This document shows, in pieces, positions 8,566-49,696 of a stretch of DNA of 64,000 nucleotides. Each line of letters begins with the position of its first letter. Positions within the stretch are counted from its first letter, which is position 1. Made by a program: the position numbers and the translations under genes. Location: positions 1,480-65,479 of the forward strand of contig CAZYRM010000005.1 of assembly GCA_964649705.1 (NCBI GenBank). Reading direction: 5' to 3'. The notes beneath the pieces are model-generated. The model had not been told where the DNA came from, searched no databases, and was given only the letters and a program-made list of their open reading frames with translations. The stretch is from an uncultured Planctomycetia bacterium. GTDB lineage: Bacteria > Planctomycetota > MHYJ01 > WSZJ01 > CAZYRM01.

Positions 8566-11500
8566 CTATCGACCTCGACGCAGCTCCGCGAGCGACTTCT
8601 CGACCTCACCACGGAAGGCCCAGCCCGCGGGGGCCACCTCCAGGGCCTTCTCCAGGCTCTTCCGAGCCCCCTCGCGGTCGCCGAGGGCGAGGAGCGCCAT
8701 GCCGCGGTCGGCGTTCGCCTCGGGAGAGTCGGGCGCGGCCTCGCAGGCCGCCTCGTAATCCGCCAGGGCCCCGCGCAGGTCGTTGAGCGCGGCCTTCGCG
8801 TTGCCGCGCCAGATCAGCGCGACCGCGTTTCGAGGGTCCTTCGCCAGCACCGCGTCGAGGTCGGACTTCGCACCGTCGTTGTCTCCGGCCCCCGCCCGCA
8901 GCGTCCCGCGCGTCACGCGGACCTCCAGGTCCTCCGGCGCCCGTTTCACCGCCTCGTCGCAGTCCGCCAAGGCGCCTGGCGCGTCCCCCGCCTGCGAGCG
9001 GACGATGGCGCGGTTCCTCCACGCCTCCACCCAGGAGGGGTCGACGCGGATCGCCTCGTCGAGGTCGGCCCTCGCCCCCGCGATGTCCCCCTTCATCGAC
9101 TTGACGCCGCCTCGGCTCGCGAGGGCCATCGCGCTCGATGGCCGCAGACGCGCCGCTTCATCGAGGTCCGAGAGGGCGCCGTCGAAGTCCCCCTCCCGCG
9201 CGCGCAGCGCCCCGCGGTTGTACCACGCGTCGAAGATCGACGGGTCGCGCTCGATCGCCGCCGTGAAGTCCGCCCGGGCCCTCGCGTGGTCCCCGAGCTT
9301 CAGCCACACCGATCCGCGGTTGTAGCGCGCCGGGCCGAACTCAGGGTCGCACTCGATCGCACGGTCGTAGTCGGCCAGCGCCCGCTTCAGCTCGCCGCGT
9401 TCGACGTGGATCCGCGCCCTCCCCGCGAGCGCGACCGCGTCCCTCGGGTCGAGGACGATCGCGGCCTCAAAGTCGGCGAGGGCGCCCTCCAGCTCGTTCC
9501 GCTCCACCCTGACGCAGCCTCGATTCACCAGCCCCTTGACGCTCCGCGGGTCGAGACGGAGGGCGGTCTCGCAGTCGGCCAGGGCCTTGCCGAGGTCCCC
9601 CTTTTCCCGCCACGAGTCCGCGCGGTTCGCGTAGGCGTCGACGCACCCCGGGTTGGACTCGATCGCCGCGGTAAAGTCGGCGATGGCACCGTCGTGGTCC
9701 TTCCTGAGAGACCGCACGTACCCGCGGTTCACGAAGGCGACGGCGTGCCGCGGGTCGATGGAGAGGGCCGCCTCGTAGTCGGCCAGCGCCCCGGCTTGGT
9801 CCGCCCTGTCCAGCTTCACGTTCCCCCGGTTCGCGTACGCGGTCGCGAAGCGCGGGGAGACGCGGATCGCCTCGTCGTAGTCGGCCAGGGCGGCCCCCTT
9901 GTCGCCGGCCAGGTGCTTCGTGAGCGCGCGGCAGAAGAGCGCGAGGGCGAACTTGGGCCGGATCGCGATCGCCTGGTCGAACGAGTCGTCGGGCCCGAGC
10001 CCCGTGCGCGACAGGCCGCGGAGCCAGTAGAGGTCCTCTCGCCCCGCCGAGCGGGCGTAGGCGCGGAGCCCCTCCTCGCAGAGCTTCGCCGCCGCGACGT
10101 GGTCCCCTCCCGTGTAGGCGGCCATCGCGCGCGCGAACTGCCGTTGCACGTCGTCATCGAAGCCGCCCCCGTCGGCCAGGGCCGCCTGGGCCTCCTCCGC
10201 CGCAAGCTTCGCCCACCTCTGCGCCCCCGGCGAGCTCCAGTTCATCTCGGGCCTCGACGCCCCGAGCGTCGCGAGGAAGGCCCGTTCCAGGCAGATCCGC
10301 GCGAGACGGTAGTGCGCCGGCCCGAAGCGGGGGTCGATCGAGAGGGCCCGGCGATAGGACGCCTCGGCGCGGTCGTCCCAGCCGCGGACCTCCCAGCCGA
10401 CGCCCATCAGGTAGTGGGCGGGAGCGAGGTCCGGGCAGAGGTCGATCGCCTTCCCGATCCAGCCCTGCGCGGTCTCCACCCGCGCGAGGAGGTCGGCGAC
10501 GCTCGCCTCCTTGTCGTAGAAGGTCGGCTGCACCTGCGCGTACGCGGCGCGGGCCTGCTCGACCAGTGTGAGGGCCTCCGCCTGCCTGCGCTCGCGCCCC
10601 TCGGCGGCGCGGCGGTCGGCGTCGGCCTGCTCGGCCAGCCGCGCCTGCGCGCCGCGGTCGTGGAGCGCGTACCACAGGCCCCCCGCGAGCACGACGGCGA
10701 TGGCGGCGGGGATCAGGACGGCGCGGCGCTTGGACGCCTTGCGCAGGACCCGCTCGACCCACCCCACGGGGCGCGAGAGGATCGGCTCGCCGTCGATCCA
10801 GCGGCGCAGCTCGGCGGCGAGCTCGGCGCCGTCGGCGAAGCGGCGCGCGGGGACCTTCTCGAGGCAGCGCATGGTGATCGTCTCGAGGTCGCGGTGGACG
10901 CGCTCGTTGGCGCGGCTCGGCGGCGCGGGGTCCTGGGAGAGGACGGCGAGGATGGCCTCGAGCCCCTCCCCCTCGAACGGGAGCCTCCCGGTGAGGGCGT
11001 GATAGAGGACGATGCCGAAGCTGAAGACGTCGCTCCGCGGGCCGACCAGGTCGCGTCCGCCGCCGGCCTGCTCGGGGGACATGTAGCGCGGCGTCCCGAG
11101 CACGGCGCCGCTCACGGTGAGGTCCTGGCCGAGATCGGTCGCGGAGAGCTCCTTGGCGAGGCCGAAGTCCATGAGCATGGCCCGGCCGCGGGAGTCGACC
11201 ATGACGTTGGAGGGCTTCACGTCGCGGTGGACGACGCCCTGGGCGTGGGCGTAGCCGAGGGCCTCGGCGACCTGTGCGAGGACCTCGACGCGGCGGCGGA
11301 GGGGGAAGGAGGCCCAGGAGGGGTCGCCGCGGAGGCACTCCTCGAGCGGCCTCCCTTCGACGAGGTCCATGGTGAAGTACGGGCGCCCCTCGCTCTCGCC
11401 GACGTCGTGGATGGCGACGATGCCAGGGTGGTGCAGGCGCGCGGCGGAACGCGCCTCGCGGAGCAGGCGGACGGCGGCCTTGTCGTCGAGGAGGCCCCCG

Positions 11501-15883: not shown

Positions 15884-16127
15884 CACTACAACGAAGCTTC
15901 TTCCAACCGCCCCGAAGGGGCAGCATGGAGCAGCCCAGGGCGCAGCCCTGGGAAAACGCGGTTGTAAGAGGACCGGAGCCCCGAAGGGGCGACATACACG
16001 CCGCGGCGCCGTGTATGTCGCCCCTTCGGGGCTCCGCTCTACCTCCAACATCGTGTTCCCCAGGGCTTCGCCCTGGGCTGGTGCATCTAGCCCCTTCGGG
16101 GCTCGGCGTTCATGGTACGTTGTAGTG
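15884..16127. mobile_element. 244-bp MITE-like element with 10-bp terminal inverted repeats (CACTACAACG / CGTTGTAGTG) flanked by CTAG target-site duplications; interior packed with hairpins
   Basis: TIRs read directly. Internal perfect palindromes: gccccgaaggggc, cagggcgcagccctg, and a long one ccccgaaggggcgacatacacgccgcggcgccgtgtatgtcgccccttcgggg. The paralogous uninterrupted site at 20473-20476 reads CTAC. Confidence 0.55.
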
Positions 16128-19411: not shown

Positions 19412-19801
19412 CTAGGGAGATGGGATACGCTGCTTCACGTCGGCGAGGAGCCTCTCCGCCAGGGCGAGCACGCTCTGGGCCTCCTGGAGCGAGGGCATGG
19501 GCGCTCCGGGCGGCCGTGCGTCCGGGTATCGGACGAGGGTGTAGTAGCCTTGGGCCACCTGAAGTCCGAGAAGGTGGTCCGGAAAGCCGGAATCCACCTT
19601 GCGAACGGCGTGAAACAACTGCTCCAGGTCGTGCGACTGAGGAATACGCCCGGTCAAGTGAAGTAGGAGGGCCTTCAACCCCTTTTCTGCCGCTTGCTGG
19701 CCGTGGAAACAGGCGTGCTTCGCGATGCCGCGGGAGATCAGGACTCGCACGCTCTCGGCATCCTCTTCCGCGTCTGCCAGCCACTCACGCGGGCTTGCCA
19801 T
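19412..19801 (-). CDS. HEPN-domain protein (toxin partner of the minimal nucleotidyltransferase)
   Basis: Start MASPREWLADAEED. HEPN-like helical domain with an R-x4-H type motif (RYPD...). 17-bp overlap with the upstream MNT gene. Confidence 0.75.
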   Translation of the reverse strand: MASPREWLADAEEDAESVRVLISRGIAKHACFHGQQAAEKGLKALLLHLTGRIPQSHDLEQLFHAVRKVDSGFPDHLLGLQVAQGYYTLVRYPDARPPGAPMPSLQEAQSVLALAERLLADVKQRIPSP

Positions 19802-20210
19802 AGAGGACTCTTCCCCTCCCCAGGATCTCATCGCGAACGAAGTAGTTTCCCTGCCGCAACATCTCCCGCCACTCCCCGGGTGTGTAAACGAGGATGTCGA
19901 GAGCCTCGTGCGCATCAGCCGCAATGCGCGCGTCACGGAGGCGGTCAAGGAATGGGCAATCGGTCTCCTTGATCAGGCAGAGGTCGATGTCCGATCCCTC
20001 CCGGGCCTGTCCCCGGGCAAGGCTGCCGAAGAGGATGACACAACTCGGCTGATAGCGCTCCCGCAGGTTTCCCACGATGCGCGTGAGCTCTTCCTCCAGG
20101 ACCGAGGCGCGCTCGACCACGGGTCTGAACTCCTCTGAACGGTCATGATCGTATCGTCCGAGACACGTTCGGACAAGTTGGATCCTCGCCCAACGCGAGC
20201 TCCGCCTCAT
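19785..20210 (-). CDS. Minimal nucleotidyltransferase (MNT) domain protein, HEPN/MNT pair
   Basis: VILFGSLARGQAREGSDIDLCLI, the GS...DxD pol-beta nucleotidyltransferase motif. An alternative GTG start at 20120 has GAGGAG 9 nt upstream. Confidence 0.75.
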   Translation of the reverse strand: MRRSSRWARIQLVRTCLGRYDHDRSEEFRPVVERASVLEEELTRIVGNLRERYQPSCVILFGSLARGQAREGSDIDLCLIKETDCPFLDRLRDARIAADAHEALDILVYTPGEWREMLRQGNYFVRDEILGRGRVLYGKPA

Positions 20211-21294: not shown

Positions 21295-22098
21295 CTAGGC
21301 CGGGTGGCCGAGGGCGATCAGGTAGACGACGGTCTCGCGCGAGTCGATCTTCAGCGTCTCCGCGACGCCCGCCTCGTGGAAGCCTCCGATCGGGCAGCAC
21401 GCGAGACCCAGGGCCGTTGCTGCCAGGATCAGGTTCTGCGCCAGGTGACCCGCGTCGAGCCAGACGAAGCGGTAACCCCGCTCGCCGTACTTGCGCAGCG
21501 TGCGCTCGAAGACCGCAGAGAGGACCAGAACGACAGGCGCCGAGAGCTCCTCTTCGGCCGTCATCACCGAGGAGGCCAGCGCGTCGCGGATGGGGCCCTC
21601 GAAGAGCGTCTCGAGGCAGGAGTCGACGGGGTCGTAGTGGTGCGCCCCCGCGTAGGGGCCGTCGAGGACCGCGGCGTAGAGCTCGATTGGGTAGATCCCC
21701 CCCGCGCTCGGCCAGGCGCGAAGCCGCTGCACGAGACCGCTCGTCCCAGGGACGGGAAGCTCCCCCGTGACGCCCGCCGCCGATCCGAGGAGGCGGCCCA
21801 GGAGGCCGAGGTCGAGAGGCCTCCGTGCGAAGCGGCGGACGGTGCGGCGACGGCGAAGGACGCTCCAGAGGGAGGCCATGCGCCAGGCCCGCCCCGCGGG
21901 GAGCGGAGTCCGCTTTGCGCCGGGATACGTTCGCCGCGCCTGGGTCGACTCGATCATCGCGTCCGCGTCGTCGAGGAAGTGGCGGATAGGCTCGGTGCGC
22001 CATGCGCCGACGTTCGGCCCGAGCTTCGATCCGTCGAGGTGCGTCCTCGCGAGCGGCCAGGTCTCCACGTCGTCGAGCGGTGTAGGGTTCCAGCGCAT
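21295..22098 (-). CDS. SagB/ThcOx-type nitroreductase-fold dehydrogenase (TOMM B protein)
   Basis: Start MRWNPTPL with GGAGGAG upstream. AGGIYPIELYA and YRFVWLDAGHLAQNLILAATALGLACCPIGGF are typical of SagB-type FMN dehydrogenases. Confidence 0.8.
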   Translation of the reverse strand: MRWNPTPLDDVETWPLARTHLDGSKLGPNVGAWRTEPIRHFLDDADAMIESTQARRTYPGAKRTPLPAGRAWRMASLWSVLRRRRTVRRFARRPLDLGLLGRLLGSAAGVTGELPVPGTSGLVQRLRAWPSAGGIYPIELYAAVLDGPYAGAHHYDPVDSCLETLFEGPIRDALASSVMTAEEELSAPVVLVLSAVFERTLRKYGERGYRFVWLDAGHLAQNLILAATALGLACCPIGGFHEAGVAETLKIDSRETVVYLIALGHPA

Positions 22099-22111
22099 GG
22101 GCTCCTCCAGG

Positions 22112-23179
22112 CTACGGGATCGGATGGGGCGATCGATTCCGGACGACGAGGCCGGGCGCGCCGAGGAAGGGCCAGTCCTCGATCGCATGCAGCGGCGCGA
22201 GACCGGGGACGATCGCCTTCACCACGTGGAACCCCGCGCAAGCGAGGTCCGACGACGTAAGGTCCTTCCACCAGGGCGCGTACCCGGCCGCGAGGAGCGC
22301 CTCACGCGGATCGACGCGGCACGCGGTCGGCGCCCGCCTCGGACCGGTGCGAAACAGGTCGAGCACCGCACGCCGCTCCGCGTGGTCCGTGTAGAACCTC
22401 GCGTGGTCCTCGAACGACTCCAGCCTGTCCCGCGGAGTCGACCTGCGGACGAGGGAGCGCACGTAGATTTGCCCGAGCTCCGCCTCGAGGTGCGCCTTCC
22501 CGAGCGCCTCGTCGAACGTCCGCGCCGCCGCGGTGCCTACCGAGACGACGTCGCGCTCCACGAGCACCGCCGCGACGGGAACGCCGAGCCGCCCCGTCAG
22601 GTCGACCGCGTGGGCGCCGGCCAGATCCACCGTCGGCGCCGGCTCCCCCGCGAACCACCAGCGGACGAAGGCGTCCCGCTCGATCGCCTCCAGCAACGCG
22701 GAGTCGAGCGCCGAGTCTACCGTCGGCCCGGCAGCGAGCCCTGTCGAGAGCGACGGGCCGAAGACCGCCTCCCCCGCCGCCGGCGCGTACGGGATGTACA
22801 CCGCGAACGCGGGGGCCGAGCGGGGCCGCCCCGTGGCCAGGTCGATCCCCTCCACCCACGCGCAGGGACCTTCGCTCGCGAAAGGGAACCCCGGGCCTCG
22901 TCGCTGCTCGTCCGAGAACGGCGCGACGTCGCCCGGCAGCACCGCGCCGGCCGGCGGCGGACCGACGACGCGCGCGAACCCCGCCGGCGTCGACGCCCCG
23001 TACCGCTCCGCCGCCTCCCCGAGGCAACGCAGCAGCGCCTCCTCGCGCGTCCACCCTCCCCCCGCTGCGTTCGGGAGACACGCCCCCCGACCAAGCGCCG
23101 CGGCGTCGCACAACTCCGCGGCGAACGCGAACATGGGCGGGTCCGACTCCGAGCGGACCGCCTCCACGACGCGGCGCAC
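22112..23179 (-). CDS. YcaO-domain cyclodehydratase (TOMM D protein); start uncertain
   Basis: GGGWTREEALLRCLGEAAERY and a C-terminal FHVVKAIVPGLAPLHAIED match YcaO. The frame stays open to 23887, but upstream residues are junk overlapping the C-protein gene. Candidate starts are GTG 23179, GTG 23167 and ATG 23134. Confidence 0.6.
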   Translation of the reverse strand: MRRVVEAVRSESDPPMFAFAAELCDAAALGRGACLPNAAGGGWTREEALLRCLGEAAERYGASTPAGFARVVGPPPAGAVLPGDVAPFSDEQRRGPGFPFASEGPCAWVEGIDLATGRPRSAPAFAVYIPYAPAAGEAVFGPSLSTGLAAGPTVDSALDSALLEAIERDAFVRWWFAGEPAPTVDLAGAHAVDLTGRLGVPVAAVLVERDVVSVGTAAARTFDEALGKAHLEAELGQIYVRSLVRRSTPRDRLESFEDHARFYTDHAERRAVLDLFRTGPRRAPTACRVDPREALLAAGYAPWWKDLTSSDLACAGFHVVKAIVPGLAPLHAIEDWPFLGAPGLVVRNRSPHPIP

Positions 23180-23216
23180 GACGCCGACGTGGCGGCCGAC
23201 CAGCGCGCGGAAGGCG

Positions 23217-23978
23217 CTACGCGCCGCAGTCGGGACAGCCGGGGACGGCCCAGACGGACTCACTCCCTCCCTCCAACGTCTCGAGGTCGACGACGAACAC
23301 CCGTCCCGCCAGGAGCGGAGGGGCGTGGCGACGCGTGAACCGCTCCACCTCCGCGGCGGCCAACGCGGCGACCGCCGCCGCGTGACGGTCGGGCCCCGAC
23401 GGCCCCAGCGATCGGTCGAGCGCGGCCCAGGCGCGCTCGGCGTCCGGGTGCGCGCGATGACTCGCCAGCCGCGCTCGGTAGCAGCCCCAGCACGCCGTCT
23501 CGCCGGGGACGAAGAGCGGCCCCACGCGGGCCCACGAGCCCTGGAGCGAGACGAGGAGCCACGGACGCCGCGAGTCCAAACGCGCGCGATTCCACCCCCG
23601 CATCTCCGACGGCCGCATGACCTCCTCGTGCACGACGGCGACCTCGTCCCCCTCCTCGACGACCTCCCCATCCAGCAACGGACGGAGCCTCGGCCATAGC
23701 GGGCTCTCCCCCACCAGGCGGACGCGCGCGCGGCGCGGGACGGACGCGGCCTCCTCGAGCACGCCCGCGGCGGCGAGCCGATCGATCGCGCGGTCGGTCT
23801 CCGTCTGCGGGACGCCGTCGAGGGCAACGAGGTCGCGGCCATCGAGGATCCCGAGCAGCTCCCCGATCCATGGCTCGGGGGCGCCATCGAAGAGGTAAAC
23901 CTCGCGGTCCCCTCCGCGGACGTGGAGAGGCGGACCAGGGACGACGACGAGCCCGGCGCGGAGCCTCGGCCTCTTCAT
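23217..23978 (-). CDS. E1-like TOMM docking/cyclodehydratase C protein
   Basis: Start MKRPRLRAGLVVV, ATGA-coupled to the upstream gene. PWLLVSLQGSWARVGPLFVPGETACWGCYRARL plus a C-terminal PGCPDCGA gives two CxxC pairs, as in SagC/McbB-like E1 homologs. Confidence 0.6.
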   Translation of the reverse strand: MKRPRLRAGLVVVPGPPLHVRGGDREVYLFDGAPEPWIGELLGILDGRDLVALDGVPQTETDRAIDRLAAAGVLEEAASVPRRARVRLVGESPLWPRLRPLLDGEVVEEGDEVAVVHEEVMRPSEMRGWNRARLDSRRPWLLVSLQGSWARVGPLFVPGETACWGCYRARLASHRAHPDAERAWAALDRSLGPSGPDRHAAAVAALAAAEVERFTRRHAPPLLAGRVFVVDLETLEGGSESVWAVPGCPDCGA

Positions 23979-24637
23979 TTCGCGTCGTTCAGGTAGGCGG
24001 GGTCCTCGCGGCGGAGGCGCTCGATGCGGTCCTCCACGCGCGTCAGGACGACCTTGAGCGCGTCCCGCAGGATGGCCCGCTCCAGGAAGGCGGGGACGGG
24101 CATCCCCGACTCCGCGTGGACCTCGTACCGCGCGAAGGTGCGCGAGGCGTCGATCGGCACGAGGACCCACCTCCCCTCGTTTACGGGGAGGCTCCCGCCG
24201 AACCGCTTCCATCGCTCCACGCGCTCGCGATCGCCGACCTCGACGTCGACGTCGATCTCCGTGTAGCGATCGACGAGGAAGTGGAAGTCGATTCGCACGC
24301 GCTTGTGCGAGCCCGACTGCTCCGTCACCTTGAGCTTCGCCATGCGCGGCATGAAGTCGGTCATCCTCTCGTGGTCGTGGACGACCTTCCAGACCTGGGC
24401 GATCGGGGCCTCGACGAGGGCGGAGATCTGGATCCACGAGGCGCCATTGCGGCGGACCAGGCGGCTGTCGACGTCTCCGCGGACGAGCCCCGCGGCGTCG
24501 GTTCGCTCGGCCTCGGTCCAGGTCCCGCGGAAGGCCGGCCACGCGAAGGCGAGCAGGCCGACGAGGACGACCGCGCGGAGGACGCGCCTCTTGCGGGGCG
24601 GCGGCGCAGGGGTCGGTTCCGGGGTCGCGTCGGGCAT
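23975..24637 (-). CDS. SRPBCC (START/Bet v1-like) domain protein with an N-terminal TM anchor
   Basis: N-terminal TM helix (VVLVGLLAFAWPAF). The domain pattern VHDHERMTDFMP...KRVRIDFHFLVDRYTEIDVDVEV...RYEVHAESG fits a polyketide-cyclase-like fold. Confidence 0.7.
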   Translation of the reverse strand: MPDATPEPTPAPPPRKRRVLRAVVLVGLLAFAWPAFRGTWTEAERTDAAGLVRGDVDSRLVRRNGASWIQISALVEAPIAQVWKVVHDHERMTDFMPRMAKLKVTEQSGSHKRVRIDFHFLVDRYTEIDVDVEVGDRERVERWKRFGGSLPVNEGRWVLVPIDASRTFARYEVHAESGMPVPAFLERAILRDALKVVLTRVEDRIERLRREDPAYLNDAK

Positions 24638-25024: not shown

Positions 25025-26818
25025 TCAGCGGCCTCGGTCGACTGGGCGCGGTCGGATCAGCGACGCGATCTCGCTCTCCTCGGGGCTGGAAACTGCACCC
25101 GCCACCAGGCGGTCCACGGTCCTCTCGCCGTTCGGGCGCTCCCACTTGCAGGACCACGGAGTCATGCCGCCGGAAGGGCACGGGAGGCCCACCGCGATGG
25201 CGTCCCTCCCCGCCCGCTCCTTCGCCTCCTCGTCGAGGAGGTCCCGGGCCTGGTCCATCACGATGGGGCCGCCGTGGGGACGGAACACGACCGCCGCCGA
25301 AGTCGTCCCGGCCCTGCCGGGAAGGGCGAGGAGCCTCTCACCCACCCTGGGGCGGTACGGCGAGGGGCACTCCTCGATGCGTCCGTCGGTCCTGCGCACC
25401 ACGAATCCCGTCCTGAACCGGTCGCGGATCTCCTGCGCGGCGGGGAGCACCCTGTCCGCGGGGAGCAGGGCGACGACGTCGTCCCCGCCTACATAGAGAG
25501 GAACGCCACCGTGCCTCCGGAGCACTTCGGGGACGCAGCGCAGGGCGAAGTCCGCGAGCGCCTCGCTGAGGAACAGGTGGACGGCCGGCGTCACCCAGCG
25601 CTTGCCCTCGGGCGGGGCGACCGCCTGCGAGTGAAACACGTCCTTCCACGTCGCGAAGCCTGGCGCGGTCCCCCCGCTGAGACCGCTGCTGTGATCCCCG
25701 TCCATCACGAGGAGGGCCAGGTCGTCGGCGGCGGGGACCGCCCTGCCTCGAAACACCTGGTCGAGAGGCGCGGGGAGGTCTACCAGCGGGAGCAGGCGCT
25801 TCGTATGGCAAGCCGCGCACAGCGGCTCTCCATGCGGCAGGGCCGCCCGCCCGCAGGCGGCGCAGGTCCGGCCCGGTTCCCGCCGGGCAGGCAGGCGCCG
25901 CACCGCCTCGGAGAGCTGCCTCTGGTTCCGCTCGAAGCACTCCCGGTAGGAGGCGGCGAGTCCCTGCGTCCCCGAGGTCCGCCACGAGGTCGCCTCCCAG
26001 GCGAACTCCCACGTGCGATCGCACTCCTGCTCCCATGCCGCTCGGTCCCCCTCCACGCGGTCGGCCACGCACGAGGCGAGCCTCCGCCACTCGGCGCGGA
26101 TCGCCTCGGCCATGCGCCCCGCGAGCGAGTCGGCGATGGGCTGAGGGACAAGGGCGAGGATGCGGTTGGAGAGTCCCGGGAGGGCCAGCTCGTCCGTCGA
26201 CGTCGGGGCGCCGACCCATTGTCGGAACAGCGGCTGGCGGGAGACGCACGGGTAGATCACGTGGTCCGGCCCGAGCTCCTCGCACACGGTGCGGAGCCCG
26301 ACCCAGACGAGGTACGAGGCGATCCACGTCCCCGTCCACAGCTCTTGGAACGACGACGCGGACCACGCGAACGACCGCACGGGTCCCACGGCGAATCCGA
26401 GGAGGGCCGGGTCGCCGTCGCACGCGGCGAGCGCGCTCACGAGGGCGCCGTGGTGCCACACGGACGAATCGGGCACGAGAGGGTCCGCGGGGAACCTGGG
26501 CCACGCGCCGCCGACGACCTCGTCCGCGTCGGCCAGGAATTCCGGCAGCACCGCGAACTGGCGGAGAAACGCGTCGCGCCCTGTGCGGGCGTGGTCGAGA
26601 ACTCTGGCGAGGACCTTCCACGCCGCCACGCGCGGGACGTCGACCGACACTCGCGCGGGGGAGATCGAATGTGTGACCTCGACGCGCTCCGGGAGGCAGG
26701 CTTCGCCACAGGGCTCGGCCAGGTGATCCTCGATCTCGCGGATCTTCGGCTCGACTTCGCCCCCCAGGGACCCACGGAGGGCCGAACGAAAGACGTGGGC
26801 CTTCTCCTCCCAGTTCAC
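25025..26818 (-). CDS. Cas10/Cmr2-like palm-domain (cyclase/polymerase) protein lacking an HD domain; solo, with no other cas genes in the window
   Basis: Palm1-like GPVRSFAWSASSFQELWTGTWIASYLVW. Treble-clef Zn finger CAACGRAALPHGEPLCAACH (C-x2-C-x11-C-x2-C). Second palm with LVMDGDHSSGL and GGVPLYVGGDDVVALLPAD (the GGDD motif). Confidence 0.7.
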   Translation of the reverse strand: MNWEEKAHVFRSALRGSLGGEVEPKIREIEDHLAEPCGEACLPERVEVTHSISPARVSVDVPRVAAWKVLARVLDHARTGRDAFLRQFAVLPEFLADADEVVGGAWPRFPADPLVPDSSVWHHGALVSALAACDGDPALLGFAVGPVRSFAWSASSFQELWTGTWIASYLVWVGLRTVCEELGPDHVIYPCVSRQPLFRQWVGAPTSTDELALPGLSNRILALVPQPIADSLAGRMAEAIRAEWRRLASCVADRVEGDRAAWEQECDRTWEFAWEATSWRTSGTQGLAASYRECFERNQRQLSEAVRRLPARREPGRTCAACGRAALPHGEPLCAACHTKRLLPLVDLPAPLDQVFRGRAVPAADDLALLVMDGDHSSGLSGGTAPGFATWKDVFHSQAVAPPEGKRWVTPAVHLFLSEALADFALRCVPEVLRRHGGVPLYVGGDDVVALLPADRVLPAAQEIRDRFRTGFVVRRTDGRIEECPSPYRPRVGERLLALPGRAGTTSAAVVFRPHGGPIVMDQARDLLDEEAKERAGRDAIAVGLPCPSGGMTPWSCKWERPNGERTVDRLVAGAVSSPEESEIASLIRPRPVDRGR

Positions 26819-26826
26819 GGCTCACC

Positions 26827-27447
26827 TCACGCGTCGGCCCGCTTCGCCTGGGCGAGCCTCTCCTTGAGGCCGTCGATCGTGCGGGCCAGGATGCCCAGCA
26901 CGACCTCCTCCCGCTCCTCCAGCGACGTGGTCTCGATCAGGTGGTACCTGACCCCGGCGTTGCGCAGGTACCCCTCGATGCGCGCGGCGACGTCCGCCCG
27001 CTCCTTGAGCGTGGAGGTCTTCCAGGGCTTCTTCTTCGTTCGGTATTCCAGGACGGGAGGGAGCAGGAAGACCGCGTCGTAGGAGGCGATCTCCTGGATC
27101 GACCACTTGAAGAGCTTGTGGACGACCATGACCTCGCGGGGGTCCTTGGGATCGAACCCCCAGAAGCAGGCCCAGACGAACGGGATGAAGGTCGCCGAGT
27201 CGCAGACGACGATCTCGCTGTTCGCGAGGTCGTCCTCCCGCCGCTTCTGCCCGAGGTAGATCATGACCTGGTCGAGAGAGTCCTGACGGCGTCTCTTCGT
27301 CGGCTTGACGTAGCGGGCCAGGTAGGTGCGCGCGTACTCGAGCGCGGTGTCGACGCTGTACCCGAGCATGCTCAGCGTGTTGGCGACCCTCCGCGCGAGG
27401 ACGGTTTTCCCGCTTGAGGGGGCGCCGACGATGGCGATTTTCCGCAA
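26827..27447 (-). CDS. P-loop NTPase (AAA_28/NadR-like predicted kinase/ATPase)
   Basis: Walker A IAIVGAPSSGKTV and Walker B-like VVCDSA. 206 aa. 8-bp gap to the Cas10-like gene. Confidence 0.75.
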   Translation of the reverse strand: MRKIAIVGAPSSGKTVLARRVANTLSMLGYSVDTALEYARTYLARYVKPTKRRRQDSLDQVMIYLGQKRREDDLANSEIVVCDSATFIPFVWACFWGFDPKDPREVMVVHKLFKWSIQEIASYDAVFLLPPVLEYRTKKKPWKTSTLKERADVAARIEGYLRNAGVRYHLIETTSLEEREEVVLGILARTIDGLKERLAQAKRADA

Positions 27448-27466: not shown

Positions 27467-28630
27467 TCAGCGCCCCTTGCCGAGGCGGGCCTGCCAGGCC
27501 TTGAGGAGCGCCGCGCGGGAGGCCTCCGTCCAATCGGCGGGCAGATCGGGGCCGCTCCCGAGCAGGCCCTCGAGCTCCTTATGCACCAGTTCCACGAGCG
27601 TCTTGCGGTGCGCGACCTGGTTCGCGGGGACCGCGTCGGCCTTCGGGAACGCGCCGAGGAGCGCCTCCGCCGACGAGCGCTTCGCCTTGTCGCCGCAGCG
27701 GGAGCCGATCGAGGCGACTGCCTGCACCGAGGTCCGCGTCACGCCGTTCAGAAAGTCGCCGCTCGTCGCGAAGGGACGCAGCGCTTCGATCGCCGAGGCG
27801 TCTCCCATCGCGCCGAGGGCGTCGGCGGCGTGCATCCTGAGGACGTTCGGATTCCGCGAGGCGACCTGCGGCGAGTCCGCGTCCTTCAGGAGCGCGAGGA
27901 CCGCCTGGGAGGCGCCGGCGTCGCCCGCGGCCTTGAGCGCGTCGAGAACGGCGAAGCGGAACGGGTCGCTCTTCACCTCGAGCAGTCCCTTCGCGCGCTT
28001 CACCACCACGCCCGCATCCGTCCCCACGAGGTTCTGCAGCGCGCGGAACCGAACCACGGGGTCGGCGTCGCCGACGAGCGTCGCCGCCTTCGCGTGCGAC
28101 TTCTTCGCCGCCGTCGCGTCCTCGAGCTCGCACGCGGTCGCGTCCGGATCGTCCCCGGCGGCCGCCTTCCCCTTCTTCACGCGCGACGCGGCCGCCTTCA
28201 CCGCCGAGAGAAACCCGCCGAGCTCCCGGCCGGTCTCGGAGAGGACCTCCTGCGAGGACGGGTCGACGAGGAAGAGGTTCGGGTAGGTCGTTACGCTGAA
28301 ACGGATCTCGACGCGCTCCGCCGCGCGGTCCCGCTCGTCGTTCTTGAAGTCGCGGTACACCCAGACCCAGACCACGTCGCCGTAGACGGCCTTCAACTCG
28401 GCCTTCGGGAGCAACTGCTCCTCCACCACGACGCAGGCGGGTCAGTAGGTCTTCGTAAAGTAGAGGAAGAGCGGCTTCCCCGCGGAGAGGGCCTCCTTGC
28501 GGGCCTCGGGGTAGCTCATCTGCCACGGGGGCCCCGCGACGGGGGTCTCCCCCGCGAAGAGCGGGACGGCGAAGAGGAGCGCGGCAAGCGTGCGCGTCGG
28601 CATGGTCACCTCCCTGGCGGAAGGCGGCAT
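27467..28630 (-). CDS. Candidate selenoprotein: secreted thioredoxin-like (Thioredoxin_7/DUF255-type) domain fused to HEAT repeats, with in-frame TGA (28442-28444) at the first Cys of the CxxC motif
   Basis: ORFs 28442..28630 and 27467..28429 are in the same frame, separated by a single TGA. Read through, the fold motif is KPLFLYFTKTY-U-PAC-VVVEEQ (U-x-x-C where W-C-x-x-C is expected). Signal peptide MPTRTLAALLFAVPLFAG. C-terminal HEAT/PBS-lyase-like repeats. Confidence 0.6.
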
Positions 28631-35572: not shown

Positions 35573-36652
35573 ATGCGAGGGCTCGCCGCCCCCGTGGTCG
35601 TCCTGCTCGCCCTGATCGGCGCCGTCGGCTGCACGTCCGGCCCCCGCTCCCGCGGGAACGACAAGATCCCCGACGGCTACGTCTCTCTCTCGGCGATCGG
35701 GAAGGACTGCGGGCTCGCCTATACCGTCGAGGGGAACGGCAAGGGCGTCCTCACGGGGGACGGCCAGCGCGTCGTCGTCCGGGACGGCCTCTCCGTGGCC
35801 GTCGTGAACGGCAACCAGATCCCGCTCTCCGGGGCCGCGCACGTCGAGGGCATGGACGCCAAGGTCCCGAAGGACTCGGCCCAGAAGATCGCCGCCGCCC
35901 TGGCGGGCGGGTTCCGGCCACCCCCCGACCCGGAGAGGTCCGGCGGCAAGGAAGCCAGGAGGCAGCCCGGCCCCTCCCGCGCGATCACCATCGTGATCGA
36001 CCCGGGGCACGGCGGGAAGTTCGACGGCGCGAAGGCGCGCAACGGCCTCGAGGAGAAAAAGGTCAACCTCGAGGTCGCCCGCCTCCTGAGGGATGCCCTG
36101 ACGAAGATGGGTTTCCGCGTGCTCATGACCCGGGAGTCCGACCGCGAGGTCGCCAAGGAGTACCGAAACGACCTGGACGCCCGCGTCCGCCTCGCGGAGC
36201 GCAGCAAGGCGGACCTGTTCATCTCCATCCACTCGAACGCCAACAACAACGCCGGCGTGGTGGGCTTTGAGGTCTACCGCTCCCGTGCCGAGAGCCGCAA
36301 GGAGGTCGAGGCGAGGATCTGGAAGTCGGTCTCCACGGCCAACCAGAGGGTCGCCAGGACGCCCGCCGCCCTCTACGACCTGAACCGCATCCGCACCGCC
36401 GCCTTCGCGGACGAGATCCGCACCTCGATGCGCTCCACGCGGATCCCCGACCGCGGGGGGGTGCGCGAGGCGGGATTCCACGTGATCAAGTGGGCTCCTT
36501 GTCCCGCCGTCCTCGTCGAGATGGACTACCTCTCGAACACGGCCGGCGCGCAGCGGCTGGGGAACTCGGCGATGCGGCAGAAGATCGCCGACGCGCTCGC
36601 GGGCGGAGTCGCGCGGTTCGCGAGTCGGCTCGACCGGATCGGGGTGAAATGA
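35573..36652 (+). CDS. N-acetylmuramoyl-L-alanine amidase (Amidase_3, AmiC-like) lipoprotein
   Basis: Lipobox LIGAVGC. Amidase_3 motifs: VIDPGHGG, E..VNL..A, SIHSNA. Confidence 0.85.
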   Translation: MRGLAAPVVVLLALIGAVGCTSGPRSRGNDKIPDGYVSLSAIGKDCGLAYTVEGNGKGVLTGDGQRVVVRDGLSVAVVNGNQIPLSGAAHVEGMDAKVPKDSAQKIAAALAGGFRPPPDPERSGGKEARRQPGPSRAITIVIDPGHGGKFDGAKARNGLEEKKVNLEVARLLRDALTKMGFRVLMTRESDREVAKEYRNDLDARVRLAERSKADLFISIHSNANNNAGVVGFEVYRSRAESRKEVEARIWKSVSTANQRVARTPAALYDLNRIRTAAFADEIRTSMRSTRIPDRGGVREAGFHVIKWAPCPAVLVEMDYLSNTAGAQRLGNSAMRQKIADALAGGVARFASRLDRIGVK

Positions 36653-37233
36653 CGTCGCGATCGGCCTGGATCGTCTCCCTGGCACTCCTCGCGGGCTGCT
36701 CCGGTCACCAGGGGCAGCTCACCGACACCGATCCGGACTACAGACGGGAGGCGATCGCCGCGAAGACGGGCGCGGGGGACCGTTCGGAGAACCCCGCCAT
36801 CGCGGCCAAGCTCCTCAACGACCCCGACTCGCTGGTTCGGGCGCAGGCGGCCGTGAAGCTCGGCGAGAGCCGCGACCCCGAGGCGGTGCAGTTCCTCGCC
36901 CAGGCGCTCACGGACCGAGACGAGCACGTCCGCTGGGATACCGTGGAGGCGCTGGAGAAGATCGGCGACAGCTCGGTCGCGCCGAAGGTGGTCGACGTCC
37001 TGGTGAGGGACGAGAACCCGAATGTCAGGCGGGTGGCCGCCCGCTGCCTGGGGACGCTCGGCGACCGGGCGGCGATCCCGGCGCTCATCGAGGCGCTCAG
37101 CGACCCCGACTACAGCGTCTCCTCCGCGGCCGCGACCGCCCTCGCGGCGATCACCGGTCAGGGATTCGGCCGAGACAAGGCGAACTGGAAGGCCTGGTAC
37201 GAAGGGACCCCGTCTCCGGAGGCACCGAAATGA
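36649..37233 (+). CDS. HEAT-repeat (PBS-lyase-like) lipoprotein
   Basis: Lipobox LLAGCSG. Repeated D..VR..A..aLG motifs. ATGA overlap with the amidase gene. Confidence 0.7.
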   Translation: MTSRSAWIVSLALLAGCSGHQGQLTDTDPDYRREAIAAKTGAGDRSENPAIAAKLLNDPDSLVRAQAAVKLGESRDPEAVQFLAQALTDRDEHVRWDTVEALEKIGDSSVAPKVVDVLVRDENPNVRRVAARCLGTLGDRAAIPALIEALSDPDYSVSSAAATALAAITGQGFGRDKANWKAWYEGTPSPEAPK

Positions 37234-41036: not shown

Positions 41037-44000
41037 TTGAACCACGCCGTGATCCACTTCGGCTGCCCGGCCTGCGGTAAGCCGTGCCGCGTCCCGGACG
41101 AGGCGGCCGGACGCACGGGGAAGTGCCCCTCGTGCGGGAGGCTCATCCAGGTCCCCCTCCCCGCCGCCCCGATCGTCCCGCCTCCCCCCGCGGCCAGGCC
41201 CGTCCCCGCCGCGGCTCCGCCCGTCGATGAGGCCCTCCTCGCCAAGGTCCGCGCGGCCTCTCGCACGTGGAAGGACCGCCTCGCCGACCGGACGCGGCGC
41301 AACCGCCTGCTCTACTTCCGCCCCACCCTCCGCACGACTCTCAAGGTCCTTCCGCCGATCGACGACCTCTTCGATCGCCTCCTCGACGGCGCGCGCGTCC
41401 CGCTGGAACAGCTCCCCACGGAGCCCGCCGACGACCAGGCCCTCCTCGCGATGAAGACCCTCCGCGCGCGGTCGCGCGAGTTCGAGGAGGAGCGCGGCGT
41501 GAACCCCCTCTTCGCCGTGTTCGGCTTCCTGGAGTGGACCACGTCGCTCCACCCCGACGTGCCGTGCAGCACGCCGATCATCCTCGTCCCCGTGCGGATC
41601 GGTACGGGAGGCAGACGGAAGTTCGTGCTCGAGGGGACCGACGACCCGTTCCGCCTGAACCCCCTCCTCGAGCAGCAGCTCCGTGAGGACGTCGGCGTCT
41701 CGATCGATCTGCCCGACCTCGAGGAGGAGACCGAGATCGAGGCCGAGCCCGACCCGTCCGCCCCGACCGCGACACCGCCCGCCCCTCCCCCGTCGAACCT
41801 CGCGCGCCTCCTCGAGGCGGTCGAGGCGAAGCTCCCGAAGGACCGAGGCTGGTCGATCCGGAGAGAGGCCTGCCTCGGGCTCCTCGCCTACCAGAAGATG
41901 GTCATCGTGAGGGACGTCGAGGCGCACGAGCGCGAGATCGCCGCGAACCCGATCCTCGCGGGGCTCGTCGGGGACCTGCGGGCCTTCCGCACGAGCCAGG
42001 AGGCCATCCCCGCCGTCCGCCCGGAGGAGATCGACGCCGTCCCGCCGGACCGGGTCTACCAGGTCCTCGACGCCGACTCCAGCCAGCAGCAGTGCGTGGA
42101 GATGGCGAAGCGCGGGGCGAGCTTCGTCATCCAGGGGCCGCCGGGGACGGGGAAGAGCCAGACGATCGCGAACGTCATCGCGGAGGCGGTCGGAGCGGGG
42201 AAGAAGGTGCTCTTCGTCAGCGAGAAGCGCGCCGCGCTCGAGGTCGTCTTCAACCGCCTGAAGGGCCGCGGGCTCGAGCACCTCTGTCTCGACCTCCACG
42301 CCGCGCGCGCCGACCGCCAGCAGGTCTACGCGCGCTTCCGCGAGACGCTCGACGAGGTCCGCACGGCCCGCCCGGTCGACGGGAAGGAGACCTTCCGGCG
42401 GCTGGAGGAGGAGCGCCGCGCGCTGAACGGGTACGCCGCGGCCCTGGCGAAGAAGCGCCCCCCTCTCGGATCGAGCCTGTACGAGACGTACGGCCGCGTC
42501 CTGGCGAACGCCGGCCTGCCCGACCTCAGGTTCCGCGTCGCCGACGTCGGGACGTGGACGCCCGAGCGGATCGAGAAGGGCGAGCGCCTCCTGGAGTCGC
42601 TCCGCGTCCTGAGGGAGCGCCTCGACGCCGCGAGGGACTCACTGTTCCTCCGGACGCCGTGGGCCCAGGACCGCGCGCCCGAGCGGGCGCGAGAGACGAT
42701 CGGCGCGATGCGGGACGCGATCGAGGACGCCCTCGCCTCCGACGCCCGCGCGCGCCTCGGCCTGCCCGCGGACGAGACCCGCGCGGGCTTCGACGCGCTC
42801 GTCCTCCTCCTCACCCACCTGTGCCAGGGAGGAACGGACCTGCCCTCCGAGTGGATGAGCGAGCTGCCTTCCAAGCTGCGCTCGGAATTCGAGTCGTTCG
42901 GCGCGCGGGTCCAGACGTACCGCGTCGACGAGCGGAGGCTGTTCGATCGGTTCAAGCCCTCGGTGCTCGACCTGGACCTCGATACGATCGTCCCGCGCTT
43001 CCAGGCGTGGGCCGCGGCGTGGTGGAGGCCCGTCCTGCCGCTCTCGAAGGCGTATCGGAGCGCGCGGGAGGGCGTGCTGGCCCACGCGCAGAAGGACCGG
43101 TCGCCCGGGCTCGTGGAGCTCGCGACGGACCTCGCCCTGGCGAAGCGCGTGCGCGACGGGAGGCGCGCCCTGGCGGGGAAGTCGGCCGCGGGGAGTTTCG
43201 CGCAGTGGTACGCGGACCCGTGGTCCCCTCTCGAGCCGATGTCGAGCGCCGTCGAGTGGTACGCCCTCGTCGTGCAGGCCCTCGATCCGGCCGGCGCCGT
43301 GCACAAGCCTCCCGCGGTCCGGGACCTCCTCACGGGCCGGGCCCAGCGCGATGCCTGGAAGGGGCCCGCGGAGGCGCTGCGCGACGCGCGCACGCGCATC
43401 TGCGCCGGCGATAACCTCCTGCTGTCGATCCTGCCGGCGGGCGCGCTGGCCAGCGCGCCCGGACTCCGGGACGAGGCGGCGGTCGCCGCACGCGCGGAGG
43501 GCGAGCTGCCGGTCCTCGCCGACGTCCTGGAGGAGCGCGCCGTCGCGCGGGAGCTCTCCACGCTCGGTCTCCGCGACCTCGCCGCGGAGGTGGTGCGCCG
43601 CGCGGTCCCCGGCGCGCAGTGGACCGCGTGCCTGCGCCAGGGCGTCGATCGCACGCTTGTCGAGGGGGCGCTGGCGAACGAGCCGGAGCTCCGCGGCTTC
43701 GACCCGCACCTGCACCTGAAGCGGATCGAGGCCTTCCAGAAGGAGGACGTCGAGCAGCTCGACCTCGCCGTCCTTCGCGTGAGACGGGAGCACGCCGAGC
43801 GGGCCACGAAGGTCATGAACGCCTTCCCCGAGGAGGAGCGGACGCTCAAGGCGCAGATCCACCGCAAGCGCGGAGGGCTCCACGTCCGCCAGCTCCTCGC
43901 GGCCGCGCCAAACGTCCTGCTCTCGCTCCGTCCCTGCTGGATGATGTCGCCGCTCTCGGTGACGCAGTTCGTCGACCTGGAGGCCGTGCGGTTCGACTGC

Positions 44001-45623
44001 ATCGTCTTCGACGAGGCCTCCCAACTCCTCCCCGAGGACGTCGTCCCCGCGCTCCTCAGGGCGGACCAGGCGATCGTCGCGGGTGACAGCCGCCAGCTCC
44101 CCCCGACGCCGTTCTTCCGCCACGTCGGCGAGGAGGAGGACGACACGGACGAGCCGACCCCGGTCGCCGGGTACGAGAGCATCCTCGAGCAGGTCTCGAC
44201 GTTCCTCCCCTCGTGCTGGCTGTCGTGGCACTACCGGTCCCGCGACGAGAGCCTGATCGCCTTCTCGAACCACCACATCTACGAGAAGCGGCTCCTCACC
44301 TTCCCCGACCCGCGGCTGGAGGAGGAGTACGGGATCCAGCACGTCCTCCTGACCGACGCCGTGTACGCCTCGGGGAGCCGCCGTGGGAACCCGCGGGAGG
44401 TCGAGGAGGTGGTCGCGCGGATGCTCGACCACGCGCGAAGGCGGCCCGACGAGTCGCTCGGCGTGATCGCGCTCGGCATCCAGCACCAGCAGGCGATCCA
44501 GGAGCGTCTGGAGGCGGCCCTCGAGCGCGAGGAGAACGCCGACGTCGTGCCGTACTTTGCCGAGGAGGCGAGCGAGCCGGTCTTCGTCAAGAACCTCGAG
44601 TCGGTCCAGGGGGACGAGCGGGACGCGATCGTGCTCTCGGTGGGCTACGGCCCCGACGCGGAGGGGAAGGTCGCGCTCCACTTCGGCCCGCTGAACATGG
44701 AGGGCGGGGAGCGGCGCTTGAACGTCGCCATCACGCGCGGGCGGAAGCGGATGACGCTGGTGACGTCGTTCCCGCCGACAGCCCTAGCGGCCGAGCGTTC
44801 GAGCTCCGCGGGGCTCCGTCTGCTGAGGGAGTACATCGAGTACGCCGCCTCGCGCGGGCGCGTGCTGGGCGGGGCGGCGATGTCGTCGGCGAATCCCCCT
44901 GAGCGCTCGGTCGAGATGGACGTCTACGAGGAGCTGGTCCGCGCCGGGCACGCACCGGTGTGCCGGATGGGGGCGAGCGCGTACCGGATCGACCTGGCGG
45001 TCCCCTACCCCACGAACCCGGGGCTCTACGCGATCGGCGTGGAGTGCGACGGCCCGTCGTACCACGGCAGCCCGACGGCGCGGGACCGCGACCGCCTGCG
45101 CCAGGAGGTCCTGGAGCAGCTCGGCTGGCGCCTCCACCGCGTCTGGTCGACCTCGTGGGTCCGAGACAAGGCGCGAGAGCGCGATCGGCTCCTCGGCGCG
45201 GTGCAGGCCGCGATCGCGGCCCCTCCGCTGGAGGCTTCCACGCCCCCGCCCGCCCCGGCTGCCCCGCCCGCCACCGCCGCCACGACCGCCGCGACCGCCG
45301 CGCCGGGTGCGACGAAGGAGGCTGCCGGGAGCCCCTTGCCCGCCGAAGCGGGCTCGACGACGGCCGCGAAGCCGGGCCAGTCGCCCGCCTTGGGAGGCAC
45401 GCGGATCTTCGGGGAGAAGGGGCCGCCGCTCAAGGGCCGCACGATCGACGACTACTCGATTGCGGACCTCGTCCAGATCGTCCGCTGGGTCGGCCGCGAC
45501 GGGCATCTTCGCACCGACGCGGAGGTCGAAGAGCTGGTCTTCCAGCACCTCCAATTCAAGCGCCGCGGCCCGCGCATCCTCGCGCAGATCCGCCGCGCCG
45601 TCGAGTGGTCGAAGTCGCGGTGA
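41037..45623 (+). CDS. DUF4011 / SF1 (Upf1-like AAA_11/AAA_12) helicase / DUF559 endonuclease-like / DUF3320 multidomain protein with N-terminal zinc ribbon
   Basis: CPACGK..CPSCGR ribbon. Walker A GPPGTGKSQT, IVFDEASQ, motif VI NVAITRGRKR. C-terminal Vsr-like YRIDLAV...IGVECDG block. TTG start per the track; a GTG at 41049 is an alternative. Confidence 0.85.
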   Translation: MNHAVIHFGCPACGKPCRVPDEAAGRTGKCPSCGRLIQVPLPAAPIVPPPPAARPVPAAAPPVDEALLAKVRAASRTWKDRLADRTRRNRLLYFRPTLRTTLKVLPPIDDLFDRLLDGARVPLEQLPTEPADDQALLAMKTLRARSREFEEERGVNPLFAVFGFLEWTTSLHPDVPCSTPIILVPVRIGTGGRRKFVLEGTDDPFRLNPLLEQQLREDVGVSIDLPDLEEETEIEAEPDPSAPTATPPAPPPSNLARLLEAVEAKLPKDRGWSIRREACLGLLAYQKMVIVRDVEAHEREIAANPILAGLVGDLRAFRTSQEAIPAVRPEEIDAVPPDRVYQVLDADSSQQQCVEMAKRGASFVIQGPPGTGKSQTIANVIAEAVGAGKKVLFVSEKRAALEVVFNRLKGRGLEHLCLDLHAARADRQQVYARFRETLDEVRTARPVDGKETFRRLEEERRALNGYAAALAKKRPPLGSSLYETYGRVLANAGLPDLRFRVADVGTWTPERIEKGERLLESLRVLRERLDAARDSLFLRTPWAQDRAPERARETIGAMRDAIEDALASDARARLGLPADETRAGFDALVLLLTHLCQGGTDLPSEWMSELPSKLRSEFESFGARVQTYRVDERRLFDRFKPSVLDLDLDTIVPRFQAWAAAWWRPVLPLSKAYRSAREGVLAHAQKDRSPGLVELATDLALAKRVRDGRRALAGKSAAGSFAQWYADPWSPLEPMSSAVEWYALVVQALDPAGAVHKPPAVRDLLTGRAQRDAWKGPAEALRDARTRICAGDNLLLSILPAGALASAPGLRDEAAVAARAEGELPVLADVLEERAVARELSTLGLRDLAAEVVRRAVPGAQWTACLRQGVDRTLVEGALANEPELRGFDPHLHLKRIEAFQKEDVEQLDLAVLRVRREHAERATKVMNAFPEEERTLKAQIHRKRGGLHVRQLLAAAPNVLLSLRPCWMMSPLSVTQFVDLEAVRFDCIVFDEASQLLPEDVVPALLRADQAIVAGDSRQLPPTPFFRHVGEEEDDTDEPTPVAGYESILEQVSTFLPSCWLSWHYRSRDESLIAFSNHHIYEKRLLTFPDPRLEEEYGIQHVLLTDAVYASGSRRGNPREVEEVVARMLDHARRRPDESLGVIALGIQHQQAIQERLEAALEREENADVVPYFAEEASEPVFVKNLESVQGDERDAIVLSVGYGPDAEGKVALHFGPLNMEGGERRLNVAITRGRKRMTLVTSFPPTALAAERSSSAGLRLLREYIEYAASRGRVLGGAAMSSANPPERSVEMDVYEELVRAGHAPVCRMGASAYRIDLAVPYPTNPGLYAIGVECDGPSYHGSPTARDRDRLRQEVLEQLGWRLHRVWSTSWVRDKARERDRLLGAVQAAIAAPPLEASTPPPAPAAPPATAATTAATAAPGATKEAAGSPLPAEAGSTTAAKPGQSPALGGTRIFGEKGPPLKGRTIDDYSIADLVQIVRWVGRDGHLRTDAEVEELVFQHLQFKRRGPRILAQIRRAVEWSKSR
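45560..45623 (+). repeat. Left copy of a perfect 64-bp direct repeat (3' end of the helicase gene, including its stop)
   Basis: gcgccgcggcccgcgcatcctcgcgcagatccgccgcgccgtcgagtggtcgaagtcgcggtga is identical at 59443..59506. Confidence 0.85.
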
Positions 45624-46989: not shown

Positions 46990-46992
46990 GGA

Positions 46993-49668: not shown

Positions 49669-49696
49669 ACACGGCACGTCCAGAGGGCAGAGATCA

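Follow-up and report, generated by a model that had tools for sequence, protein, structure and literature searches.

The window analysed here, a stretch of 64,000 nucleotides from an uncultured Planctomycetia bacterium (contig CAZYRM010000005.1 of assembly GCA_964649705.1), carries on its minus strand, at 27467..28603, a gene in which one in-frame TGA codon is predicted to encode selenocysteine (Sec). Judging from sequence comparisons, we consider with high confidence that this is a real selenoprotein gene, with predicted insertion of Sec at the TGA; it is very probable, too, that the two open reading frames (ORFs) annotated in its place are one gene, coding for an exported selenoprotein that would retain ~360 residues once the signal peptide is cleaved off. 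The gene belongs to a Planctomycetota-wide, Sec-dominated family that joins a thioredoxin (Trx) domain of the Thioredoxin_7 type to HEAT-like repeats (Trx7-HEAT) and is misannotated in public databases. On balance we lean towards a fuller reading, in which the family would be an uncatalogued exported Thioredoxin_7-HEAT oxidoreductase with a U-P-H-C motif, essentially Planctomycetota-specific, with Sec ancestral and dominant (~85–90%), several independent reversions to Cys and two designs of the selenocysteine insertion sequence (SECIS) that co-evolve with the peptide (EEQLLP or EKQLLP versus ERGLLS).

A gene with one internal TGA codon

A preliminary description, made from the letters of this DNA, had pointed to two ORFs in a common frame. 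This was found to be so, since 28630..28442 (62 aa) and 28429..27467 (320 aa) on the minus strand share one frame, and the TGA at 28444-28442 is its sole break. The start of the upstream ORF, given as ATG 28630, had to be revised: the likely start is ATG 28603, as indicated by a Shine-Dalgarno-like GGGAGG (also present in the closest relative, locus L041), by the public gene calls, which start at 28603, and by the signal peptide. The main features of the gene are as follows.

27467..28603, minus strand: complete predicted selenoprotein gene, 378 codons including one Sec codon; a single frame with one internal TGA
28609..28614, minus strand: Shine-Dalgarno-like GGGAGG, 6 nt upstream of ATG 28603, read from the sequence
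28442..28444, minus strand: in-frame TGA, predicted codon for selenocysteine, the U of U-P-A-C and first residue of the Thioredoxin_7 CxxC motif
28433..28435, minus strand: TGC, codon of the resolving Cys of UxxC; Cys in every sequence compared
27469-27467, minus strand: TGA, the gene's own stop

The active site obtained by reading through the TGA, ...KPLFLYFTKTY-*-PAC-VVVEEQLLP..., is identical to the one described beforehand, and the product upstream of U reads ...GKPLFLYFTKTY-U-PAC-VVVEEQLLP.... The motif is of the UxxC type, as anticipated; the residue preceding U in this family is Y or H, in place of the W of the usual W-C-x-x-C. In the codon of the resolving Cys, positions 1 and 2 (columns 13-14) do not vary, whatever the sequence, and only C or T is found at position 3 (alignments A2-A4). 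Both halves of the product had been judged to look like real protein. With the TGA translated as Cys, Thioredoxin_7 matches residues 36-124, across the stop, and HEAT_2 matches residues 185-256. G+C content at third codon positions is ~0.95 on either side of the internal TGA (the window as a whole has 69.5% G+C), and the Cys homologues P0006, P0007 and P0009 are full length and align end to end with the read-through product. Since the gene ends with TGA, this triplet is an ordinary stop codon in this genome.

Public annotation splits the gene into two ORFs of 53 aa and 315 aa, the latter named 'HEAT repeat domain-containing protein' by NCBI. All the public calls examined shorten this gene, with the consequence that the redox domain and the signal peptide are missing from databases and that the family is invisible to selenoprotein naming based on hidden Markov models.

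Conservation of the TGA codon among relatives

The DNA of relatives was compared at 37 loci, one genome per species, and at 37 metagenome loci, 33 of which cover the site; two further loci, fetched for P0006 and P0009, brought the number of Cys forms to six. The codon at the column of the window TGA is TGA in 34 of the 37 species-representative genomes and TGC or TGT in 3; the metagenome contigs covering the site have TGA (32/33) or TGT (1/33). After removal of duplicates there were 61 distinct TGA-bearing orthologous sequences, with 35–80% protein identity to the window, almost all of them from Planctomycetota metagenome-assembled genomes (MAGs) and metagenomes. The codon is present in three independent assemblies of the window's own organism (L038-L040), and in 60 further distinct orthologues too. 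That 61 divergent orthologues keep TGA at one codon supports the initial view that a random nonsense mutation is unlikely. An alignment to homologues had been proposed as a check, with Cys at this column on one side and orthologues ending there, as for a pseudogene, on the other. It revealed six Cys forms (TGC in L016, L030, L078 and L079; TGT in L036 and L057), and no orthologue ends at the column for want of downstream coding sequence. The peptide around the site is conserved as [FS]TKT[YH]-U-PHC-V, and variability by codon position follows the order third > first > second in the same phase on either side of the TGA.

At the protein level, a search returned 52 relatives, of which 48, with 293–335 aa, and one of 388 aa begin directly after the CxxC position (the starts of the shortened relatives read MEEQLLP.., MKVEEQLLP.. 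and MLPK..), and 3 are full length, reading TKTY-C-PHC-V. When 1.84 billion cluster representatives were searched exhaustively with a profile, 102 clusters came up at E <= 1e-30. Of 156 proteins inspected, no fewer than 93 have their start directly past the U column, 13 have CPHC, 2 have CTPC or CPDC and a few have lost the motif. Roughly 85–90% of family members carry the Sec form. The Cys forms are scattered within different Sec clades of a neighbour-joining tree, and one of them (L057) is 71% identical to Sec forms. Large contigs with a Sec form include CBDFJG010000004.1 (2.04 Mb) and JADJWQ010000002.1 (1.33 Mb), and JAUILN010000004.1 has a Cys form. Because of this position of the Cys forms inside different Sec clades, Sec is probably the ancestral state, replaced by Cys several times.

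A SECIS-like hairpin downstream of the TGA

The short hairpin noticed initially, GGAGC-AGUU-GCUCC, was located at 28421-28408, beginning 21 nt past the UGA.

28406..28424, minus strand: SECIS-like hairpin; upper stem 28421-28417 with 28412-28408, loop AGUU at 28416-28413

It has a bulged A at 28422, lower pairs 28423/28407 and 28425/28405, an upper stem of 5 bp, a UGA-to-loop spacing of 25 nt and a minimum free energy (MFE) of −8.3 kcal/mol. According to the rules for bacterial SECIS elements (bSECIS), the loop is 3–9 nt long with a G in its first two positions, usually followed by G or U, the upper stem has 4–16 bp, the distance from the UGA is 16–37 nt and the MFE is <= −7.5 (PMC13188914). 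The hairpins of the window and of all 61 TGA forms agree with these rules.

Folding of the region downstream of the UGA had been suggested as a further check. It showed a conserved hairpin at the right distance, with G-U in the apical loop and compensatory substitutions, and Cys forms without the hairpin: the 63 nt around the site align gap-free, and the MFE of a 24-nt segment ranges from −7.9 to −13.8 kcal/mol in 61/61 TGA forms and from 0 to −5.9 kcal/mol in 6/6 Cys forms. The hairpins, all at one position, fall into two classes. Class A, with 44 sequences of which the window is one, has the lower pairs, the bulged A, a 5-bp stem G-N-A-G-C/G-C-U-N-C and the loop A-G-U-U, and class B (17 sequences) reads GGAGAGG-GGUCU-CCUCUCC; the UGA-to-loop spacing is 25 nt in the former and 24 nt in the latter, and both agree with the bSECIS consensus in that the loop opens with a G followed by U or G, or has this G near its start.

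Paired cells make up 94.3% of the total in class A. The stem pair of columns 28 and 39 is never unpaired (AU in 21 sequences, GC in 20, CG in 2 and GU in 1), while columns 24 and 42 form GC in 22, CG in 12 and UG in 1 and are unpaired in 9. The covariation score of 0.274, to be compared with a mean of 0.141 after shuffling, was reached by none of 500 shuffles. Class B varies little (99.3% of cells paired). Column 28 falls on the first base of codons for Glu, Lys or Gln, and column 39 on the synonymous third base of a Leu codon. Lys AAG is paired with Leu CUU in 21/21 genes, in which only 6.9% of the remaining Leu codons are CUU; Glu GAG goes with CUC in 15 of 16 genes and Gln CAG with CUG in both genes that have it (2/2). 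The loop, too, is encoded by a minor codon, UUG in class A and GGU in class B, UUG representing 7–16% of the other Leu codons of the genes.

Export, domains and predicted fold

The predicted protein consists of a signal peptide, a thioredoxin domain spanning the TGA and a helical C-terminal part.

28553..28603, minus strand: signal peptide MPTRTLAALLFAVPLFA, predicted cleavage between MPTRTLAALLFAVPLFA and GE, before GETP
28259..28525, minus strand: Thioredoxin_7 (PF13899), spanning the TGA; residues 36-124, 38.2 bits versus a cutoff of 27
27470..28180, minus strand: alpha-helical linker and HEAT-like solenoid; outer boundaries approximate, transferred from the P0006 model
27863-28078, minus strand: HEAT_2 (PF13646), Pfam, residues 185-256, 42.5 bits versus 27.7
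27773-27841, minus strand: HEAT_PBS, Pfam

Nearly all orthologues with a recoverable 5′ end have a basic N-terminus, a hydrophobic stretch (Kyte-Doolittle maximum ~1.9–3.2) and an A-x-A-type site. The mature N-terminus is conserved among orthologues as GSETPPxGPPW, with the exception of L036, which has an extra N-terminal domain. The assignment to the Thioredoxin_7 fold is supported by the Pfam match above the gathering threshold, a CxxC-type motif that starts helix 1, a conserved cis-Pro loop and the Trx fold itself. Within the HEAT-like solenoid the motif NPNVLR is invariant, and NGLT is invariant too.

The structure was modelled on the Cys homologue P0006 as a stand-in for the window protein. 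The AlphaFold model of full-length P0006 (predicted local distance difference test score 92.4, predicted template modelling score 0.89) combines a thioredoxin fold with a long helix and a HEAT-like solenoid, residues ~148–390 forming a repeat made of helices only. Structural neighbours of its Trx domain are 3f9u, DsbH, AGR3 and DsbD-gamma. The C-terminal part is similar in fold to alphaRep, armadillo and HEAT repeats, and its profile matches alphaRep proteins in the PDB at E=3e-18; no solved structure matches the whole protein. Three Cys-type relatives (P0074, P0089 and P0106) share with L036 the extra N-terminal domain of ~220 aa, which has the motif YQACDxKxCxPP and a faint, sub-threshold match to DsbD_N (18 bits), and this suggests a link to a DsbD-like electron relay.

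Proposed mechanism and function

We propose that the UGA at 28444-28442 is decoded as Sec in translation, the hairpin 20–40 nt past it in the coding sequence serving as a bacterial SECIS. By analogy with the known bacterial system, the hairpin would recruit SelB-GTP-Sec-tRNA(Sec) to the ribosome. Sec would thereby be placed at the N-terminal nucleophilic position of U-P-A-C, which in most relatives is U-P-H-C. After Sec-dependent export (Sec standing here for the secretion route), the protein would engage in thiol-disulfide or selenenylsulfide exchange in the cell envelope, and its C-terminal HEAT-like solenoid, with the invariant NPNVLR and NGLT, may be a docking surface for a partner or substrate. 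The product is probably an envelope thiol-disulfide oxidoreductase with Sec as the attacking residue, whose substrate and redox direction we infer; a reductase or isomerase role is favoured by the structural neighbours of the modelled Trx domain.

Decoding machinery and alternative explanations

Several observations weigh against what is proposed above. The window hairpin is modest (5 bp plus 2), and 34% of synonymous recodings are as stable; because it is no stabler than such recodings, the SECIS call rests on the comparative data, covariation replacing the single-sequence argument. Rfam searches, of the window at the gathering threshold and in a permissive scan at the site, gave no SECIS family and only chance snoRNA-like matches, a result that counts for little, as bacterial SECIS elements of this type were not expected among the Rfam models. 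ARAGORN detected no tRNA-Sec in the 64-kb window, where it found no tRNA at all, or in the 37 loci. Pfam scans of annotated and scanned ORFs revealed no selA, selB or selD among the main ORFs of the window, and motif scans revealed no sel genes in 652 kb of fetched related loci. As to function, CPHC is the motif of the oxidase DsbA, and since C/U-P-H-C is thus a DsbA motif as well, the redox direction is uncertain; a comparison of neighbourhoods found no gene cluster common to the family, so that context gives no clue to function.

Complete selA, selB, selC and selD sets, together with candidate selenoproteins, are documented in four Planctomycetes, so the trait exists in the phylum (PMC4807772). 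A scan of the window for TGA read-through gave no other credible selenoprotein candidate; the other matches seem unlike real coding frames, lack a Cys/Sec-type context and lie for the most part inside opposite-strand ORFs.

The machinery not found in the 64-kb window and the weakness of the window hairpin would both be compatible with read-through that needs no selenium, the hairpin stimulating near-cognate or suppressor decoding as Trp, Cys or Arg. We judge this unlikely, given that the UGA column is Cys, and never Trp or Arg, in all CxxC-bearing full-length homologues, that the codon stands at the position of the catalytic nucleophile, that the hairpin follows SECIS-specific rules on loop G-U and spacing, and that Sec machinery is known in Planctomycetes. 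Even less probable is a true stop, the locus being either a pseudogene or two genes, one for a secreted peptide of 53 aa and the other for a cytoplasmic HEAT protein of 315 aa. Public gene callers do annotate these two ORFs, and candidate GTG and TTG starts exist after the TGA. However, the nonsense codon is kept in 61 divergent orthologues with purifying selection on both flanks, a stop would cut the Trx fold in two after strand 1 and before the active-site helix, the downstream product would have neither signal peptide nor active site, and the Cys homologues are continuous. Moreover, the called downstream starts vary among orthologues (MLP.., MEEQ.., MKVEEQ.., VPIE..), and no ribosome-binding site was noticed before them in the sequences read, no systematic scan having been made. 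The pseudogene and the two-gene arrangement were rejected on account of the conserved TGA and flanks, the split fold and the continuous Cys homologues. That the TGA results from a sequencing or assembly error, or that an alternative genetic code is in use, is barely credible: the identical TGA occurs in three independent assemblies and in dozens of other MAGs, and TGA also ends this very gene. Together, the independent assemblies and this terminator exclude both possibilities.

Neighbouring genes in the window

The neighbours of the predicted selenoprotein gene in the window code for an AAA_28 ATPase, a Cas10-like protein and a secreted protein of 258 aa. Only L041, the 79%-identical relative, has these neighbours too. 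The Cas10-like gene (25025-26818, minus strand) codes for a lone 597-aa protein with Cmr2_N and Cas10-Cmr2 palm (GGDD) domains, and lies directly downstream of the gene for the AAA_28 P-loop ATPase (26827-27447, minus strand) and of the selenoprotein gene, the pair being kept in L041. Pfam scans revealed no further cas genes, no search for CRISPR arrays having been made.

The remaining observations concern other parts of the window. A run of genes at 21295-24637 (minus strand), coding for YcaO, nitroreductase-family, polyketide-cyclase-like (SRPBCC) and enoyl-CoA hydratase proteins, looks like a small biosynthetic cluster of the azoline type or for a ribosomally synthesized and post-translationally modified peptide. 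Adjacent HEPN and nucleotidyltransferase (NTP_transf_2) genes at 19412-20120 (minus strand) are typical of an MNT-HEPN toxin-antitoxin module. On the plus strand, 41037-56859 resembles a defence island, with genes for a DUF4011/AAA_11/AAA_12 helicase that includes an MTES_1575 nuclease domain, for an AAA ATPase accompanied by an S8 subtilase, and for a type I restriction-modification system made up of two overlapping HsdM-like ORFs (49556-51205 and 50572-52710), HsdS and HsdR. An Acido-Lenti-1 small RNA motif (Rfam RF01687, 43 bits versus a gathering score of 37) is found at 15908-15952 (minus strand), and an unrelated second HEAT_2/HEAT_PBS repeat protein of 247 aa is encoded at 36490-37233 (plus strand), adjoining an Amidase_3 gene.

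A second candidate on a related contig

One of the related contigs, L003, which also carries a Sec-form Trx7-HEAT gene, contains a second candidate selenoprotein gene at 10181-11149 (minus strand), with its TGA at 10550-10552. It codes for a 323-aa exported protein with the motif GAPW-U-GWCGE. Thioredoxin_7 extends across the TGA with a score of 58.8 bits, and 22 nt past the TGA there is a strong hairpin, GCUCGAGG-AGUU-CCUCGGGC, whose AGUU loop is that of the class A SECIS. No NCBIfam family scored above cutoff for this protein. The presence of such a candidate hints that the envelope selenoproteome of Planctomycetota may be wider than annotated.

Comparison with known selenoproteins

Among the NCBIfam models (release 20, June 2026), none attains its cutoff with the window protein, the best scores being those of DsbH (25 bits versus 190) and of the Trx7/PDZ family (20 versus 300). 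None of the models for UxxC Trx-like selenoproteins, namely GOS_C (NF045500), SaoT (NF040730), HUIPC (NF047660), VPGUxxT (NF041383) and TsoB (NF045694), scores above cutoff either; each gave no match or one far too low, such as 11.6 versus 805 with TsoB and, for P0006, 17 versus 275 with VPGUxxT. Neither HEAT nor PF13899-UxxC appears among the 119 prokaryotic selenoprotein families tabulated in a 2026 review (PMC13188914), the published papers on BSepDB and deep-Sep mention nothing similar, and a literature search found no paper pairing bacterial selenoproteins with HEAT repeats or PF13899-UxxC. The family therefore seems to be uncatalogued, and an earlier record under another name is possible. 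Its recognition would add a Sec-dominated exported family to the prokaryotic selenoproteome and mark many Planctomycetota MAGs as selenium users; if the interpretation is right, the family may be among the genes that keep the Sec-decoding trait in Planctomycetota. With 61 Sec and 6 Cys forms, two hairpin classes and covariation at synonymous sites, it would also offer a clean natural data set on SelB-SECIS recognition outside Proteobacteria and Firmicutes.

The Trx-fold bacterial selenoproteins with UxxC include Sec-thioredoxin (PF00085), a thiol:disulfide interchange protein (PF13098), and DsbA-like, DsbG-like and redoxin families (PMC13188914 Table 1). The window family is like them in that Sec replaces the N-terminal Cys of CxxC, that a SECIS hairpin follows the UGA within the coding sequence and that Cys orthologues exist. 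Some of these families (Dsb-type) are periplasmic or exported, and in most of them Cys forms predominate. The window family differs in combining Thioredoxin_7 (PF13899) with a HEAT-like solenoid of ~230 residues, in being mostly Sec (~85–90%) and in being nearly confined to Planctomycetota.

In architecture, the family is comparable to the Trx7/PDZ (seleno)protein family NF041199, the only catalogued selenoprotein family that likewise joins Thioredoxin_7 to a protein-interaction module. The window protein does not belong to NF041199, its match being weak and local to the active site (residues 27-68, with the score given above); the motif is UxxC here and CxxU there, and the partner module is HEAT here and PDZ there (no PDZ match was found in the window protein). 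In structure, the Trx domain is closest to DsbD gamma, DsbH and the Bacteroides exported cytochrome-c-biogenesis-related domain (1vrs_D, 2ju5 and 3f9u). These three have Cys, not Sec, and the DsbD-gamma motif is CVAC. Unlike DsbD, the window protein has no DsbD membrane domain, and its motif is UPAC or UPHC. With the DsbH model (NF043050) scoring far below its cutoff, the likeness to DsbH is structural only.

Finally, the hairpins of the family are similar to the SECIS of the E. coli fdhF type and to the bSECIS model of Zhang and Gladyshev (per PMC13188914) in being stem-loops inside the ORF with a bulged base 5′ of the upper stem. Set against that model, they have a loop of 4–5 nt starting with (A)GU or GGU, a spacing of 24–25 nt (16–37 allowed) and an upper stem of 5–8 bp. 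Unlike the fdhF SECIS, to which their sequence is unrelated, they come with two stem sequences (classes A and B) in one family of predicted selenoproteins. The known mechanism of Sec insertion is left unchanged by this family; mechanistically, the window protein would be a standard bacterial selenoprotein.

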